From: a virus
IMG/VR virus record: IMGVR_UViG_3300045988_061855
Strand: one strand, 5' to 3'
DNA length: 64,000 bases
The notes under the pieces are model-generated. The model was not told the origin of the DNA. It searched no databases and saw only the letters and a list, made by a program, of their open reading frames with translations. How positions within the stretch are numbered: position 1 is the first letter of the stretch; each line of letters opens with the position of its first letter. The position numbers and the translations under genes are program-made. Below, in pieces: positions 19,662-30,109 of this stretch.

Positions 19662-19816
19662 TAAGTAAACAAGATAGAGAAGTTCGTTTTGATAAATATT
19701 GCGAGCTGTGTAAGTACAAGGAGTTAGATGATATTAAAGACCCTTGTAATGCCTGCTTAGATGCACCATTTAACGAGTACTCACACAAACCAATATGTTT
19801 TGAAGAGAAAGAATAA
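19658..19816 (+). CDS. Cys-rich small protein, 52 aa (sub-threshold)
   Basis: ATGA overlap with the previous stop. MISKQDREVRFDKYCELCKYKELDDIKDPCNACLDAPFNEYSHKPICFEEKE*. Confidence 0.5.
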   Translation: MISKQDREVRFDKYCELCKYKELDDIKDPCNACLDAPFNEYSHKPICFEEKE

Positions 19817-19827
19817 TGGTCGTGTAA

Positions 19828-19845
19828 TTTACAAGTACTATTATG
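19828..19845 (+). promoter_or_regulatory. Early-region box copy
   Basis: ttTACAagtacTATTATG, abutting the AAAGGAG of the 19863 ORF. Confidence 0.55.
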
Positions 19846-19862
19846 AAAGGAGTGTGATATTT

Positions 19863-19949
19863 ATGAAACAGGGCGTCAAATTAGCGATTGTTGGTGTTGC
19901 TGGGTATTTCATAGGGCTTATGCTTGGTATAAAAAAACAAATATATTGA
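19863..19949 (+). CDS. TM peptide, 28 aa
   Basis: MKQGVKLAIVGVAGYFIGLMLGIKKQIY behind AAAGGAG. Confidence 0.4.
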   Translation: MKQGVKLAIVGVAGYFIGLMLGIKKQIY

Positions 19950-19980
19950 CGGCTAATTAAATAATAACACTGACGAGACA

Positions 19981-20007
19981 GAGTCCTAACAAGGGCTCTT
20001 TCTTTTT
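19981..20007 (+). terminator. Terminator family A copy
   Basis: GAGTCCTAACAAGGGCTCTTTCTTTTTTT. Confidence 0.65.
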
Positions 20008-20034
20008 TTACACATTTTAAGGAGGATTTACATT

Positions 20035-25134: not shown

Positions 25135-25378
25135 ATTATATTTGGTTCATGGAAATACTTGGTATGAGGGATATGGACATTGTGAGAATCTTTATGGAGT
25201 GTTTACAGATAGAAAAACAGCTGAGAAGGTTAAGGCTGAAGTAACAGTGAAACTCTATGAGAAAGAAATGCATAATATAAACACCAATGTTGAGAGTATT
25301 TCTGATATTGAAATTGATATTTTGGAAGTCGATGCTAACCAGGTTACTGATATAGAATTAGGAGGATACGTTGAATGA
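25127..25378 (+). CDS. Hypothetical protein, 83 aa
   Basis: Overlapping start/stop chain with neighbouring genes. Confidence 0.6.
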   Translation: MDKLYLVHGNTWYEGYGHCENLYGVFTDRKTAEKVKAEVTVKLYEKEMHNINTNVESISDIEIDILEVDANQVTDIELGGYVE

Positions 25379-25806
25379 GAGGCAAATTAAAGTTAGATGA
25401 AACATCAGTTGCTAAAATAATTGAAATTGCCATGTCTAATAATGAAAAATGTAAGGCTTGTAAGTTCAGAGGCATGTGCTTTTTTGCTTACTCATGCCTT
25501 AGCAACAATTATAAATACTATTTAAAGGGAGATACGGAAATGATTAGAGAATTGAAAAATTGGACTGAAACAACAAAAGGATTATACAGGTATGTTGTTG
25601 GTGCTTCGGTATGTTATGAGATTCACATAATGTATCATGCTAAGGATACTGATATTTTAACAGCGAACGCTTCATTATATATAGTTGGTGATTGGTTTAA
25701 GCCTGTAAGCAGCACTAACTTCTTTGAGAGGAAGCTATTATTAAATGGTCCTGTAGCAGCATGTTTAGAAAAAGCTGCTGAAGACGAAAAGGAGATGGGA
25801 AAATAA
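25375..25806 (+). CDS. Hypothetical protein, 143 aa
   Basis: AGGAGG RBS. Confidence 0.65.
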   Translation: MRGKLKLDETSVAKIIEIAMSNNEKCKACKFRGMCFFAYSCLSNNYKYYLKGDTEMIRELKNWTETTKGLYRYVVGASVCYEIHIMYHAKDTDILTANASLYIVGDWFKPVSSTNFFERKLLLNGPVAACLEKAAEDEKEMGK

Positions 25807-25988
25807 TGATAAAAATTATAGAACTTGGAACCATTAGAAAGCAAAAATGTCAACGTTGTGGATGTTTATTCTCTTACGAAAATGAAGATGTGATAACGGA
25901 AAGAAATGAACACATGCTTCTTGGGTTTCATAAAATATACATAAATTGTCCACAGTGTGAACAGAAAATAGTATTAGGAGTGTGCTAA
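25806..25988 (+). CDS. Zinc-ribbon protein, paralogue A
   Basis: MIKIIELGTI..CQRCGCLFSYENEDV...CPQCEQKI; paralogous to the 26529 gene. Confidence 0.6.
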   Translation: MIKIIELGTIRKQKCQRCGCLFSYENEDVITERNEHMLLGFHKIYINCPQCEQKIVLGVC

Positions 25989-26121
25989 GCGATGAGTGAA
26001 TTAAATTTTGAGAAATGTAATGGTTGCCCATATTATTTTGAAGAGATAGACCAGTGTATGTTCGGAGATGATGATATTCCTGATAATTTAGAGAAAAAAT
26101 GCAAGACGGAGGATATATCAA

Positions 26122-26265
26122 ATGATTAAAAAAATAATAGCCTCGATAATGTGTTCTTTTGTTAAGTTGTATTTTAAATTAGACAACGAATGCACTTGTT
26201 ACTGCATCGGAACAAATGGCGATAATGATGATTATGATATTCATAGAAGGAGATATAAAACATGA
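26122..26265 (+). CDS. Possible small ORF, 47 aa
   Basis: GACGGAGG RBS. MIKKIIASIMCSFVKLYFKLDNECTCYCIGTNGDNDDYDIHRRRYKT*. Confidence 0.35.
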   Translation: MIKKIIASIMCSFVKLYFKLDNECTCYCIGTNGDNDDYDIHRRRYKT

Positions 26266-26453
26266 TAAAATATATTAATGAGATGTGTGAAAAATACAAG
26301 TGTGATATTCAGTTAACTTTCAAATTATATGGGGAATTACGAATAGTTGTCGTGGCAAACGGGCATATGGATTATTTGATGATTGATTCAAATACCGACG
26401 AAAATACTGTGAAAAAAAGTATCGAAGATACAATAAGGAGGTGCTTACAATGA
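26262..26453 (+). CDS. Hypothetical protein, 63 aa
   Basis: AAGGAGA RBS. Confidence 0.55.
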   Translation: MIKYINEMCEKYKCDIQLTFKLYGELRIVVVANGHMDYLMIDSNTDENTVKKSIEDTIRRCLQ

Positions 26454-26528
26454 TATTTATAATTCATAATACATAATCTTAAATATGACACTGATGAGAA
26501 ATATTTTGAAGAATTGGAGGAAACGTGA

Positions 26529-26717
26529 ATGATTAAAATTATTAAGCCTGGAACAATAACAGAATTGAGATGCTATAAATGCGGATGCTTATTCAGTTAT
26601 GAAAAAGAAGATATAGAAATTAAAAAAGTGAATATATCAGATCCTTTATCTACGCAATATAAATATATAACTTGCCCACAGTGTAAAAAGGAAATAACAT
26701 TGGAGGCTACGAGATGA
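26529..26717 (+). CDS. Zinc-ribbon protein, paralogue B
   Basis: MIKIIKPGTI..CYKCGCLFSYEKEDI...CPQCKKEI. Confidence 0.6.
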   Translation: MIKIIKPGTITELRCYKCGCLFSYEKEDIEIKKVNISDPLSTQYKYITCPQCKKEITLEATR

Positions 26718-27109
26718 TTAAATTAGAAGGTAGAGTTCTATTATTTGATGTGATCAATCAACTCTCTAATAAAATATCTAAAGATTGTAAACTTACTATG
26801 CCCGAAAAAGTTCCTTTGACTTGGAATTTTGAGCATGATAAACCTATTGGATTTGCTACGCCAATCAGAGATAATAAGGGCATTTATGCCACAGCAGAAA
26901 CATTTTCCAATGAATATATTGGCATCGAAGATATCCGGGATATTCTTACAGATGGAAAGATTGGTGTTGGTGGATACTATAGTATAAATAAAAGGCACAA
27001 CGAAGGAGAACTAGACATCATTGATGAAGCAACATTACTAGATATTGGACTAACTTTGGCGCCGGTTCGTGAAGAATATTATTTTAAAATTATGGAGGAA
27101 AAGAAATGA
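26714..27109 (+). CDS. Hypothetical protein with a prohead-protease-like N-terminal motif
   Basis: KVPLTWNFEHDKPIGFA..NKGIYATAETF resembles EVPLVWNHEHNDPNAVLGHA..KDGVYAYGMF in the 43577 product. Confidence 0.65.
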   Translation: MIKLEGRVLLFDVINQLSNKISKDCKLTMPEKVPLTWNFEHDKPIGFATPIRDNKGIYATAETFSNEYIGIEDIRDILTDGKIGVGGYYSINKRHNEGELDIIDEATLLDIGLTLAPVREEYYFKIMEEKK

Positions 27110-27361
27110 TTAAATTAGAGCATGTAGTTCTGGCAAGTCCGGAGCAGATGGAGTTTATTATTGAGGGTATGCGAAACCCTATGAATTCATGGGAGAAAGG
27201 AGACAGTAAACTGGCGACCGCTGGATATGACGTTGTCGGGTTCGATCTTGGAGACGCTGATCTCGCTCTGATGCGGCGACTCTCCAAAGCAGGTACTGAC
27301 CATAGAAAATTCATGCGAATGATTCCGGTGTATGTGAGAATCACTGCGCCGTTGTATTGGT
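27106..27361 (+). CDS. ThyX-like (divergent) protein, exon 1
   Basis: ...GDADLALMRRLSKAGTDHRKFMRMIPVYVRITAPLYW, then T27361 begins a codon completed in exon 2. The unspliced frame stops at TAG 27361-63. Confidence 0.75.
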
Positions 27362-27416
27362 AGTTCTTTCTGCCAATGAAACACTTTGCCTAGTTATTGC
27401 TAGGGGTCACGCTAAA

Positions 27417-27434
27417 TTTACATCTCCTATAATG
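27417..27434 (+). promoter_or_regulatory. Early-region box copy (inside intron)
   Basis: ttTACAtctccTATAATG, abutting the AAAGGAG of intron ORF 1. Confidence 0.6.
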
Positions 27435-27449
27435 AAAGGAGTGATTTAT

Positions 27450-27644
27450 ATGATAGCTAGAATGGCATTAACAATCAACATTAATTCCAAAAAAGGCAAA
27501 TATTTTGTGAAGCAGATGTTACCTAAATGTAAACATATGGTAACTATCAGATCAAGCAAAGTCTTAGATGGATATACTGATTATATAATGGACATTGAAG
27601 ATTATTATATAGCACAAGAATTATTAGAAAAGATTGAGTCCTAA
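27450..27644 (+). CDS. Intron ORF 1, 64 aa, no homing-endonuclease motif seen
   Basis: Looped out by the helix GTCACGCTAAA (27406-16) / TTTAGCGTGGC (27667-77). AAAGGAG RBS. Confidence 0.5.
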   Translation: MIARMALTININSKKGKYFVKQMLPKCKHMVTIRSSKVLDGYTDYIMDIEDYYIAQELLEKIES

Positions 27645-27661
27645 CATGGGCTCTTTCTTTT
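27636..27661 (+). terminator. Terminator family A copy (inside intron)
   Basis: GAGTCCTAACATGGGCTCTTTCTTTTT; its 5' arm encodes the last codons ES* of intron ORF 1. Confidence 0.55.
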
Positions 27662-28025
27662 TATATTTTAGCGTGGCTAACGGGGAACCACCCATTGGAA
27701 TCCCGTGGGAAACATTTCAAAGATATATTTTCGCGAAAATTACATGGTGTATTATGAGAGAATAAGGCCCGTGGAATTAAAAATATTAACCACAATTCTA
27801 GGGTGACTAGTAACGGTGGAGATTCTATTAGAATCGTAGTTAGGCAAGATCCTTATTCTTTTTTGTTTTTATTTCTTTTATATTTTTGAAATGAACCTGT
27901 AGAGGCTATCCCCTATGCCTTCCGGGCGGGGGAGTAGGGCTACTATTGATACGTAGCTGGGTTTTAGGAAACGAAGCCCATGAAAACCGAAATGGTGTCC
28001 TATTGTTTTTTGTGTGTTAGCGAGA

Positions 28026-28043
28026 TTTACAACTCCTTTTATG
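28026..28043 (+). promoter_or_regulatory. Early-region box copy (inside intron)
   Basis: ttTACAactccTTTTATG, abutting AAAGGATGG. Confidence 0.6.
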
Positions 28044-28060
28044 AAAGGATGGTGATATTT

Positions 28061-28285
28061 ATGTTTAATTTTTTTAAGAAAAAAGTCAGAGAAGAGGACC
28101 CAATATTGAAGGAGATAAACCAACAAACTGAAGAATTAAAAGCTATAACCGATTCTATGCGTAGAGATAACGAATCATTAGAAGCTGATATTCAAATTGC
28201 GGAAAAATTATTACTCAATAGGGGATACTCACAAGAGGATTTGGAAAAATTAAAAATAAAATCGAAACTCAAAATAGTTAAGTAA
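28061..28285 (+). CDS. Intron ORF 2, 74 aa coiled-coil, no homing-endonuclease motif seen
   Basis: MFNFFKKKVREEDPILKEINQQTEELKAITDSMRRDNESLEADIQ... Confidence 0.5.
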   Translation: MFNFFKKKVREEDPILKEINQQTEELKAITDSMRRDNESLEADIQIAEKLLLNRGYSQEDLEKLKIKSKLKIVK

Positions 28286-28375
28286 AAATTAGGGGAAGAC
28301 TCAGAGTAAAATCTTGGTCTTTTCTCTTTTGTATTTAACACACAAAAAACAATAGTAAAAGATAGTCCATTAATG

Positions 28376-28857
28376 GGAAAGAATTTGATACTTATAAAGT
28401 TGGTACTGTTGCGAACTCTTGCAGTACAATGCACAAGATTGCTGAGAAAGAGTTTACACTGGAGGATTTCTCTACGGAGCATCTGATGACCTGGAATGAC
28501 GATTTCACAGCGGATTGCGTTATTGATTATGGACATTCTCCTGACGGTTATCCTTCTGGTAAAGTTCCCATGGATATTTTAGGCAACACTATTAAGATGC
28601 TAAATGAAGCTAGGGATAAATATTTAAACTTTTCGTCTTTAAATGTTAATACTGAAAATGCTAAAAAAGATATTTGGTGGCAGATGATCCAGCTTCTTCC
28701 GAGCAGCTATAACCAGACACGCAACGTTATGATGAATTATGAGGTGCTGACAAACATATATAAGTCTCGCAAAGACCACAAGCTGGACGAATGGAGAGAG
28801 TTCTGTAAGTGGATTGAAACTTTACCTTATAGTGAATTAATTATCGGAGGTGAATAA
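28376..28857 (+). CDS. ThyX-like (divergent) protein, exon 2
   Basis: GG completes the Trp codon, then KEFDTYKVGTVANSCSTMHKIAEKEF...NYEVLTNIYKSRKDHKLDEWREFCKWIETLPYSELI. The spliced product is 245 aa. Confidence 0.75.
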
Positions 28858-28862
28858 ACATA

Positions 28863-29120
28863 ATGACTTTTGATGATTTGATAGTCATCACACCAAATGT
28901 AAGATTAGCTGATTTAATACAGCTATTTTTATTAGGATATGATGATAAAATATACTTTGATGTGGAGATCAATAGCGGAAATGATGTTATTACGCTAGAT
29001 AATGTGCGCATAATAGCACCAGAGTTACAACCCTATTACGACTATAAGATCGCATATCTTGGTGAACCTGATTATGAATCGCATGCTAATTTAGAGGTAA
29101 CATTAAAAAGAGTGGTATAA
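28863..29120 (+). CDS. Hypothetical protein, 85 aa
   Basis: GGAGGTG RBS. Confidence 0.6.
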   Translation: MTFDDLIVITPNVRLADLIQLFLLGYDDKIYFDVEINSGNDVITLDNVRIIAPELQPYYDYKIAYLGEPDYESHANLEVTLKRVV

Positions 29121-29284
29121 ATGACCACTATATTTTTAATATTATTAATCATTCGCACAATTAGTTTGCAATTGGGACGTTTATATTTATGATATGTGTA
29201 TCTATTAGCTATGATATAGCGACGTCAGATTTACAAGACAGATTTAAGTTCTGGTTACTTTCAAATTAAGGAGGATTTTACATT

Positions 29285-29641
29285 ATGACAACGCACAATA
29301 AATATGACAATGATATTTTAAAGCAACTTACAAGGATTGCTAACGCTTTAGACAGGATAGCTAAGAGATTACCAGAAGAATGTGATACAGCTGAGTACGC
29401 AAAAGAGAATCCAGATTGGACTGAGAAAATTGAAAAGATGGCTTCTGGTTATTATTTACAGGTAATAAGATGTAAAGACTGTAAATGCTTCATACCATTG
29501 GAAGATATGAAAAAATGCCCGGAATACAAGGATTACCCATTTGATGCAGCAGAAAAAGTACATTCTGATGGTATATGTACAAATACTGATAAATGGGTTT
29601 ACACAAGTGATTTCTGTAGTGAGGCTAAAAACTCGCAGTAA
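29285..29641 (+). CDS. Cys-rich hypothetical protein, 118 aa
   Basis: AAGGAGG RBS. CKDCKC...C...C. Confidence 0.65.
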   Translation: MTTHNKYDNDILKQLTRIANALDRIAKRLPEECDTAEYAKENPDWTEKIEKMASGYYLQVIRCKDCKCFIPLEDMKKCPEYKDYPFDAAEKVHSDGICTNTDKWVYTSDFCSEAKNSQ

Positions 29642-29658
29642 AAACATGTTCCTTAATG
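29640..29658 (+). promoter_or_regulatory. Early-region box copy
   Basis: aaaaACAtgttcCTTAATG, upstream of the 29689 gene. Confidence 0.6.
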
Positions 29659-29688
29659 AGTAAATTATAATCTAAGGAGGAATTAATT

Positions 29689-29883
29689 ATGACATCAGAA
29701 GAAAGAATTGATGAACTTGAAAAGAGGGTTCGTATTATGGAAATGAAAAATGATAATCTGGGAAAGCGTTTAGACATCATGTCTGAGCAATTACAGATTG
29801 TTAATATTTCGTTAGTTCAAATATACGGCATTCTTGACCTTCAGGATAAAATCAATCGTATTAACATGATGACTAAACAGTAG
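29689..29883 (+). CDS. Small coiled-coil protein, 64 aa
   Basis: AAGGAGG RBS. Confidence 0.6.
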   Translation: MTSEERIDELEKRVRIMEMKNDNLGKRLDIMSEQLQIVNISLVQIYGILDLQDKINRINMMTKQ

Positions 29884-29900
29884 TAATTTATTAAAGCAAA

Positions 29901-29936
29901 GGGCTTGAGTCTTAGGACTTAGGCTCTTATTTTTTA
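29901..29936 (+). terminator. Terminator family B, third copy
   Basis: GGGCTTGAGTCTTAGGACTTAGGCTCTTATTTTTT. Confidence 0.65.
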
Positions 29937-29956
29937 TATTTAGGAGGTAATATTCA

Positions 29957-30109
29957 ATGATGACACAGGAACAGATGGAAATTGAAATCATGAAGTTAAA
30001 AATGGAAAACAACGAGATTAAGGAGATTATATTAGAAATGCAGCAGCAAATAAAAGAGACAGTCAGTTTACTTGAGCAGGTAGCTGTCTTAATGACTTCG
30101 AGAAAGTAG
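29957..30109 (+). CDS. Small coiled-coil protein, 50 aa (sub-threshold)
   Basis: TAGGAGGT RBS. MMTQEQMEIEIMKLKMENNEIKEIILEMQQQIKETVSLLEQVAVLMTSRK*. Confidence 0.45.
   Translation: MMTQEQMEIEIMKLKMENNEIKEIILEMQQQIKETVSLLEQVAVLMTSRK

Follow-up and report, generated by a model that had tools for sequence, protein, structure and literature searches.

The interrupted gene and its predicted splice junction

We analysed a window of 64,000 nt of viral DNA (IMG/VR record IMGVR_UViG_3300045988_061855; positions below are those of the window), in which a gene at 27106-28857 is interrupted by a 1014-nt sequence that is very probably a group I intron. Two open reading frames (ORFs), 27106..27363 (85 aa) and 28429..28857 (142 aa), flank the interruption. 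An earlier note on this DNA, made from the letters alone, had read them as the halves of one protein, to be joined by splicing after T27361 and after G28375. When 27106-27361 is joined to 28376-28857, the product is a protein of 245 aa, MIKLEH...APLYW-WKEFDTYKVGTVANSCSTMH..., which matches phrog_6721 (PHROG 6721, function unassigned) in one stretch over residues 1-243 (E 6.5e-81).

Among 5.8 billion proteins, 8000 scored homologues of the spliced product were found; the best 120 of these are uninterrupted and 64-84% identical to it over the full length. The N-terminus MIKLEH and the whole of residues 1-85, encoded by exon 1, align to uninterrupted homologues, and an alignment of the spliced product with 15 of them is gapless at the junction. 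In this alignment conservation is highest in ITAPLYWWKEFDTYKVGTVANSCSTMH, the block that spans the junction: Y84, D90, T91, G95 and T96 are invariant, and W85, W86, K87 and E88 are nearly so. Uninterrupted homologues read ...APLYW/WKEFDTYK... across the same point (slash, junction). By tblastn against phage records, 27 of 27 matches were single pieces, 20 of them covering at least 80% of the query. The best 80 homologue loci in IMG/VR were likewise all single pieces, and a gene naturally divided in two, the arrangement that the earlier note had set against its own reading, was not seen among them. These results established that the two ORFs are halves of one protein, whose frame is precisely restored by joining the exons.

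The mRNA needed at the junction reads TAT TGG TGG AAA. Because the base after T27361 is A, and the base before G28376 is G where T is needed, the junction can be placed in one way only, and this is the placement given in the earlier note. The intron therefore comprises 27362-28375, 1014 nt; it is preceded by U and ends in G. Across the junction, the predicted spliced RNA reads CCGUUGUAUUGGU/GGAAAGAAUUUGAU, which can also be written CCGTTGTATTGGT/GGAAAGAATTTGAT. The first ATG of the exon 2 region is at 28429, and a start there would omit the invariant WKEFDTYKVGTVANSCST block.

Over a 70-codon stretch spanning the junction (154 pairs from 29 intron-bearing copies), the ratio of nonsynonymous to synonymous substitution rates (dN/dS) had a median of 0.116, with a median dS of 1.43. 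When the exons were taken separately, dN/dS among intron-bearing loci was 0.13 (exon 1) and 0.15 (exon 2). Clearly, both exons are under purifying selection across intron-bearing lineages. The interrupted gene is thus still selected as one unit, which would require that the intron be removed.

Proposed fold of the intron and covariation among its relatives

Employing the 24-mer GTAGGGCTACTATTGATACGTAGC (27934-57) as a query, we found 68 loci in IMG/VR. Of these, 41 have the same interrupted gene and the same 3' end of the intron, immediately after which stands GGRAAGARTTYGAYAC, the first bases of exon 2. For 28 of the 41 the 5' junction could be located as well, with exon 1 ending in ...TAYTGGT. 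The introns range from 308 to 2277 nt in length, and some hold no ORF (308 nt in L139 and L111, 447 nt in L154; L numbers are our locus numbers). The fold was derived by comparison of these relatives and is given in window positions (Table 1). For its evaluation, the three variable loops were cut to GAAA in 29 complete copies, and the resulting 26 distinct sequences were aligned.

Standard pairs occupied 97.9% of the cells in the 26 copies, compared to 38-47% when the partners were slid by 1-3 columns. Changes on both sides were found in 33 of 80 pairs (8-14 in the slid versions), the covariation score was 0.281 (0.04-0.07 in the slid controls), and none of 500 shuffles reached any of the observed pairing measures. 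Compensatory changes were seen in P3, hairpins A and B, P5, P6, P6a, P7, P7.1, P7.3 and P8 (P, paired segment; J, joining segment). P4 and P7.2 are invariant and thus uninformative on pairing; P7.2 is part of the 24-mer with which the loci were found. So many independent pair types, as read from the aligned sequences, would be hard to explain without the proposed fold.

The two pseudoknotted helices, P3 and P7, were paired in all copies. In P3, two of five pairs showed compensatory changes; in P7, a U-A pair becomes C-G in L154, and G.U and A-U alternate. At the same positions, introns of other genes carry different but complementary P3 strands: AAUGGU/GCCAUU in Enterococcus phage EF1, CACUCU/AGAGUG in L142, UGCUCCU/AGGAGUA in L124, AUAUCU/AGAUAU in L118, AAUUUU/AGAAUU in L103 and ACCUU/AGGGU in L097. 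P3 was placed by this positional comparison; an unconstrained search for the best P3 was uninformative, the search space being too large. A P3 resembling that of the td intron of phage T4 (GGCU 27675-78 / AGCC 27975-78) was also considered and rejected: no covariation was visible by eye, and its 3' partner sits in the covarying P7.3.

The splice-site elements described in the earlier note could all be read in the sequence. Its 6-bp P1 with U.G at the 5' splice site (ATTGGT and GCCAAT in the DNA) was 98.5% paired over five counted pairs, which were invariant except for two mispairs, and the guide strand was invariant in the 26 copies. Its 8-bp P10 on the guide region was 96.6% paired in the 26 relatives; the changes were one-sided only, because the exon strand is coding. 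Its terminal G, the last base of the intron, is conserved in 29 of 29 complete copies. The 11-bp helix that it had described as looping out ORF1, the stem of hairpin B here, is present as well and covaries in relatives: four of six counted pairs are compensatory, and in L139, L154 and L148 the loop is merely 2-4 nt long. P8, a perfect helix in the window, is a 7-bp hairpin in relatives, with compensatory changes in five of the seven pairs. The long helices of P8 and P6a had been overlooked in the earlier note, and so had the third, non-coding cassette. The same-gene copies listed share a 3' tail of 7-9 nt, whereas family introns of other genes have a P9 hairpin there.

Judged by pairing and conservation of this kind, the intervening sequence is very probably a structurally conserved group I intron of the IA type, which would be self-splicing.

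Table 1. Positions of the exons, predicted intron helices and cassettes in the window (helices given as 5' strand / 3' strand)
Feature	Position	Strand	Remarks
Exon 1 of the gene with predicted ThyX fold	27106..27361	+	Residues 1-85 and first base of W86 codon
Putative group I intron	27362..28375	+	1014 nt; starts AGUUCUUUCU, ends AUUAAUG
Exon 2	28376..28857	+	Last two bases of W86 codon through E245 and stop
P1	27356-61 / 27372-77	+	AUUGGU / guide GCCAAU; U27361.G27372 at 5' splice site
P10	27364-71 / 28376-83	+	TTCTTTCT (RNA UUCUUUCU) / GGAAAGAA; 8 bp; 3' strand is exon 2 start
P3	27381-85 / 27994-98	+	ACACU / GGUGU; pseudoknot with P7
Hairpin A	27389-94 / 27399-404	+	CCUAGU UAUU GCUAGG; 4/6 pairs compensatory
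Hairpin B	27406-16 / 27667-77	+	11-bp stem; loop is cassette 1 (ORF1)
J3/4	27678-80	+	UAA; single-stranded
P4	27681-84 / 27702-05	+	CGGG / CCCG; invariant
P5	27688-90 / 27696-98	+	CCA / UGG; 2/3 pairs compensatory
P6	27707-09 / 27896-98	+	GGG / CCU; 1/3 pairs compensatory
P6a	27713-27 / 27879-93	+	15-bp helix; loop is cassette 3, non-coding; 8/8 counted pairs compensatory
P7	27904-10 / 28361-67	+	GGCUAUC / GAUAGUC; pseudoknot with P3; contains G-C pairs
P7.1	27911-13 / 27929-31	+	Inner stem 27917-19 / 27925-27; compensatory changes
P7.2	27939-43 / 27953-57	+	Invariant
P7.3	27958-64 / 27974-80	+	Compensatory changes
P8	28000-19 / 28336-55	+	Perfect 20 bp; loop is cassette 2 (ORF2)
3' tail	28368..28375	+	CAUUAAUG; ends in terminal G28375; no P9 domain
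Cassette 1, in hairpin B loop (27406..27677)		+	Box 27417-49; ORF1 27450-27644 (64 aa); hairpin 27636-53 and T run
Cassette 2, in P8 loop (28000..28355)		+	Box 28020-60; ORF2 28061-28285 (74 aa); hairpin ~28292-28325 and T run
Cassette 3, in P6a loop (27713..27893)		+	Non-coding; box variant TTCGCGAAAATTACATGGTGTATTATGAGAGAAT; 12-bp stem 27756-67/27851-62; T run
Cassette outside the intron	19815..20010	+	Box; 28-aa ORF; terminator AGAGUCCUAACAAGGGCUCUUUCUUUUUUU, near-identical to the one after ORF1

Covariance-model searches and points against a group I intron

Several points weigh against this assignment. The alignment of the trimmed introns used our own anchors and shortened loops, and the structure was derived from the same sequences on which it was tested, which gives the observed pairing an advantage in the comparison with slid controls. 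The topology departs from that of a textbook group I intron in that two hairpins stand between the 5' strand of P3 and J3/4, and there is no P9, with 8 nt only from the 3' strand of P7 to the splice site. Between the exons there are two or three strong terminator-like hairpins, which should reduce the amount of full-length pre-mRNA. Finally, Rfam's group I model (RF00028) matched neither 27000-28900 nor the 371-nt core, even with E values up to 10 allowed, and no Rfam group I match was found in the 308-nt ORF-less relative.

The last point can be judged by controls. Using Rfam release 15, a tRNA was the sole match in the whole window. Under the same search, the T4 td intron (L007), the EF1 element (L005) and the elements of Lak megaphages were all missed at E up to 1-10; the td region had been located via a td 3' segment, which matched T4 at 100%. 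The Rfam scan proposed in the earlier note as a check came out formally against its reading, but because td was missed too, the negative says nothing on the intron in the window. Clearly, IA-type phage introns are invisible to the standard Rfam scan used here. The family is widespread, and genes split by it are annotated as fragments when the standard model is relied on.

Comparison with known introns

The earlier note had called the intron td-like, and part of this likeness stands. T4 td is likewise a group I intron (IA2) of about 1 kb (1016 nt, compared to 1014 nt here) and interrupts a phage gene within a strongly conserved motif, as does the intron in the window. A 32-column local match between the two over J3/4-P4-P5 scored 26, compared to 14.2 +/- 2.1 for shuffles, none of 300 reaching the observed score. 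The strings common to both are short: AACGGGGAACC...AAUCCCGUG in J3/4-P4-P5, GGGGAGUAGGG, AGAUAGUC in J8/7 and the 3' strand of P7, and the exact string GGGGAGTAGGG; a J8/7-P7' string, AAGAUAGUC, is common to the window, td and EF1. Both introns have extra hairpins of the P7.1/P7.2 type between P7 and the 3' strand of P3 (three here, 27911-27980) and ORFs in terminal loops. The likeness fails elsewhere. In td, P2 precedes P3, whereas here the 5' strand of P3 directly follows P1 and precedes hairpins A and B; td has a P9/P9.1/P9.2 domain, whereas the window intron has only its 8-nt tail; and td encodes the GIY-YIG endonuclease I-TevI in P6, whereas the window copy encodes none. The host genes differ as well: that of td encodes the thymidylate synthase ThyA, whereas the one in the window encodes a protein with a predicted ThyX fold, for which a role in nucleotide metabolism is suggested by the fold only.

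The nearest relative in an annotated phage record is an element of Enterococcus phage EF1 (MF001358). By blastn, window 27894-27997, corresponding to P7-P7.3-P3', is 78-84% identical to EF1 and to Lak megaphages, in which related EF1-type elements occur, and the local alignment score between the window and EF1 was 90, above all 300 shuffles. Window 27649-27760 is 82% identical to a human-gut phage contig. Megablast of the intron region against phages gave no match. The EF1 element shares the layout P1, P3 5' strand, hairpin A, hairpin B, UAA, P4 and the same 24-mer. It differs in its host gene, in a GIY-YIG-like ORF in P6, in a P9 hairpin and in the absence of cassettes; it follows a coding sequence annotated as 'DNA polymerase III alpha subunit', and no intron is annotated in the record.

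In relatives with an intron at this site, endonuclease genes or small ORFs are found in the loops, P6a among them. L095 carries a GIY-YIG endonuclease (PF01541, 49.4 bits), and L143/L096 carry a protein that matches HNH_3, NUMOD4 and I-HmuI-NUMOD, all above the curated cut-offs. A nuclease-like ORF of 233-234 aa, in which CxC...SCGC modules are repeated and DUF2726 is weakly matched, is found in L116, L120, L134 and L149, in longer or shorter versions in L138 and L137, and its last residues are retained as a remnant in the 308-nt intron. A Pfam search of the loop ORFs found no homing endonuclease in the window copy. Gain and loss of endonucleases among these relatives is the usual life cycle of homing introns.

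Other cargo was noted in one set of relatives (L140, L105, L106, L129 and L144): a 293-aa protein with a DUF7211 motif start (LSHHGVKGQKWG) and a 152-aa GNAT-like protein (weak match) in P8, and an 84-aa crAss001_48-related protein in P6a.

Cassettes in the intron loops and outside the intron

The intron ORFs of 64 and 74 aa had been described in the earlier note as non-endonuclease ORFs, each with a box and a terminator-like hairpin. This description agrees with our results. Neither ORF1 nor ORF2 matched a Pfam family, and their PHROG matches were weak. The box, TTTACA-N8-WWTGAAAGGAG, occurs three times in the window (19828, 27417 and 28026), compared to 0.15 expected. The hairpins with T runs after ORF1 and ORF2 were stabler than shuffles (z -5.0 and -2.7), and so was the terminator of the cassette at 19815-20010 (z -4.25). 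The 28-aa peptide of the latter cassette is hydrophobic, MKQGVKLAIVGVAGYFIGLMLGIKKQIY.

Two readings of the box were rejected. As a sigma-70 promoter it found no favour, a promoter scan being at chance (14 found, 13.5 expected); the TTTACA and TATAAT-like parts are merely 5 nt apart. Hairpins in the boxes that would sequester the ribosome-binding site were not stabler than shuffles (z -1.4 and -1.1) and were not conserved.

In the box variant of cassette 3, ATGAGAGAAT replaces ATGAAAGGAG, and no ORF follows. Its closing stem covaries by eye in L107, L154 and L132. The non-coding cassette (27731-27878) recurs in P6a of L107, L109 and L154, in the hairpin B loop of L132 and at L158:980-1125; it consists of a box variant without Shine-Dalgarno sequence (TATTATGAGAGAAT), a variable part of about 80-150 nt closed by a covarying stem of 8-12 bp, and a T run. 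No Rfam match was found for it, and its fold z-score was -1.7. It may be a small RNA gene.

Homologues of ORF2 lie in different places: in P6a in L130, in P8 in the window and in contig 3300045988_090789 (L123/L156), and outside introns in L158 (IMGVR_UViG_3300045988_169751). Contig 3300045988_090789 also has intron segments, and its ORF1 and ORF2 cassettes are nearly identical to those of the window. At 100-1350 of L158 there is a tandem array of at least four cassettes outside any intron, in which the unit is a terminator hairpin, a T run, CGCGAA..ACA, TATTATGAAAGGAG and an ORF; the array includes an 81%-identical homologue of ORF2 as well as the non-coding module. Other small ORFs alternate among hairpin B, P6a and P8 in relatives. 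The distribution of these homologous sequences indicates that the cassettes shuffle between intron loops and arrays outside introns.

The PeSL (promoter-early stem-loop) cassettes of T4-type phages (PMC2839356, PMC4122927) are similar: a stem-loop plus box motif bounds small unassigned ORFs, the same ORFs occupy differing slots of related genomes, and tandem arrays occur, as in L158 here. The PeSL motif sequence is unrelated to ours, and the window cassettes, with the box as a putative promoter, differ in sitting in ribozyme loops, a placement that is not known to have been described for PeSLs.

Intron pieces were observed in two further phages. L004 (MT835485.1) contains at 1690-2350 a piece from hairpin B through P6 only, with P4 damaged; in L159 (IMGVR_UViG_3300045988_156397), at 195-470, J6/7 is fused to P3'-P8-P7', which in turn is fused to a second copy of the host gene's 3' end. 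These truncated pieces adjoin cassettes and look like recombination debris at cassette boundaries.

The host protein

The earlier note had likened the host protein to ThyX. At the level of sequence profiles the likeness was not recovered: a hidden Markov model of the host family found no Pfam match at E up to 10 and no match against PDB sequences, and hhalign against the single ThyX of T. maritima (a sequence identical to that of PDB 1kq4) was not significant (probability <1%). At the level of the fold it held. The model was made for P0002, an uninterrupted homologue that shares about 84% identity with the spliced product. AlphaFold with 27 close homologues gave an unusable model, with a predicted local distance difference test score (pLDDT) of 46; a 60-sequence alignment that included representatives of clusters at 50% identity was used instead and gave pLDDT 90.9 and a predicted template-modelling (TM) score of 0.86. 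In a Foldseek search of PDB with this model, all 50 matches listed were ThyX (E from 1e-7, probability 1.00, TM 0.5-0.66, identity 12-15%), and the fold matches that of ThyX (PF02511; PDB 1o26 and 3ah5) over the full length. As modelled, the host protein has the ThyX fold.

Local motifs correspond in part, with G-x-x-H...ITAPLYW here for GHE...VKAPIFV of ThyX, and LLP. By a hand alignment, from which the residue mapping is a tentative one, N163 and R174 of ThyX are kept as N206 and R217, whereas R78-H79-R80 are replaced by T91-Y92-K93, R90 by T or M, R147 by I, R165 by E and H53 by T. The ThyX motif RHR(x)7S...R does not occur; the corresponding host motif reads TYKVGTVANSCSTMH, in keeping with the replacements pointed out in the earlier note, and the intron site lies five residues upstream of it. 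Because the motif residues are replaced, chemistry with flavin adenine dinucleotide (FAD) and deoxyuridine monophosphate (dUMP) is doubtful. The protein is probably not a thymidylate synthase; its family comprises 4112 clusters at 50% identity (E <=1e-3). A literature search for thyX together with a group I intron retrieved no relevant case.

Alternative explanations

Could the locus be a dead gene, into which cassettes and an intron remnant were inserted, with nothing spliced and the two ORFs decaying as pseudogene halves? We consider this improbable. A copy without endonuclease, the internal terminators, the truncated intron fragments in the related phages L004 and L159 and the lack of an Rfam match would all fit such a history, but both exons are intact and in frame, with dN/dS of about 0.12-0.15 and synonymous sites near saturation across intron-bearing lineages. 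Moreover, the core helices are kept by compensatory changes, the inserts are confined to terminal loops closed by long helices, and P1, P10 and the terminal G are intact. Somewhat less probable still is a naturally split gene, the exons being translated separately as two subunits, or the RNA pieces being joined in trans after the terminators. Boxes before and terminators after ORF1 and ORF2 could give separate transcripts, and the ATG at 28429 does open a 142-aa ORF; that start, however, loses the invariant block at the junction, neither a ribosome-binding site nor a start is found at 28376, and 80 of the 80 best homologues are single genes. Assembly in trans also meets the difficulty that 27667-27730 (3' strand of hairpin B and 5' part of P4-P6) has no box in front of it, so that this piece would have no promoter.

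For an element of another kind, whether a group II intron, an intein or a translational bypass, nothing speaks beyond the fact that the gene is interrupted, and we give this explanation almost no weight. Against group II, the intron has no GUGYG start, no AY end and no reverse transcriptase; an intein is excluded because, relative to exon 1, no frame of the insert is free of stop codons; and 1014 nt is about 20 times the length of the bypass in T4 gene 60.

Proposed mechanism and implications

With a group I intron as the preferred reading, the gene would be transcribed through the intron and the RNA would fold into the P3-P8 core. A free guanosine would attack after U27361, held in P1 by the guide GCCAAU; the 3'-OH of exon 1 would then attack after G28375, exon 2 being held in line by the 8-bp P10. 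The 245-aa protein would be translated from the resulting mRNA. Such an intron would descend from a mobile family whose other members carry nuclease genes (GIY-YIG, HNH or others) in P6a or P8, and the window copy would have lost its endonuclease. The loops of hairpin B, P6a and P8 would have come to hold cassettes bounded by box and terminator, the same units as in phage small-gene arrays. The cassettes were probably exchanged by recombination between conserved cassette ends, as with the PeSL motifs of T4-type phages, and closing helices of 11, 15 and 20 bp would keep the inserts out of the ribozyme core.

A broader picture can be offered only tentatively, and as a whole it may well not hold. 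The intron may have turned from a selfish homing element into a carrier, its three loops serving as neutral landing pads for cassettes that encode small proteins, such as ORF1 and ORF2 if these are expressed, and possibly a small RNA. Selection on the cargo might then maintain the endonuclease-less intron, production of the ThyX-fold protein would need read-through or antitermination at the internal terminators, and the host family, without the arginines for FAD and dUMP, may do a different nucleotide chemistry.

It is well established that phage genes can contain group I introns, and the presence of one is unremarkable in itself. Such introns have been found by the thousands in gut phages, and splicing of predicted gut-phage group I introns has been confirmed by metatranscriptomes in other phages of another clade (PMC12880540). 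New here are the lack of an endonuclease and of P9, the unusual placement of P3, and the three cassettes, which are interchangeable and have terminators. With P3 ahead of two hairpins and P9 absent, the family would be useful for work on ribozyme structure, and its 308-nt member without an ORF lends itself directly to use as a test substrate. Intron loops as slots for the cassettes that build phage variable regions link two kinds of genome plasticity. A non-endonuclease gene in a group I intron also occurs in fungal mitochondria, in which rps3 resides in an intron of rnl. There, as in the window, an intron loop holds a gene other than a homing endonuclease; the rnl intron carries one conserved host-function gene, whereas the cargo of the window intron is a set of interchangeable small cassettes that all have their own terminators. 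The large ThyX-fold family (about 4100 clusters at 50% identity) is of unassigned function, and its motif changes argue against thymidylate synthesis.

Genomic surroundings

The window belongs to an uncultured human-gut phage, and over the terminase and portal region it shares about 70% identity with unverified phage contigs from human faeces. At 25375-30100, the intron lies within a run of many small same-strand ORFs, a variable region typical of phage early regions. Two paralogous CxxC...CPQC proteins are encoded in this run, at 25806-25988 and 26529-26717.

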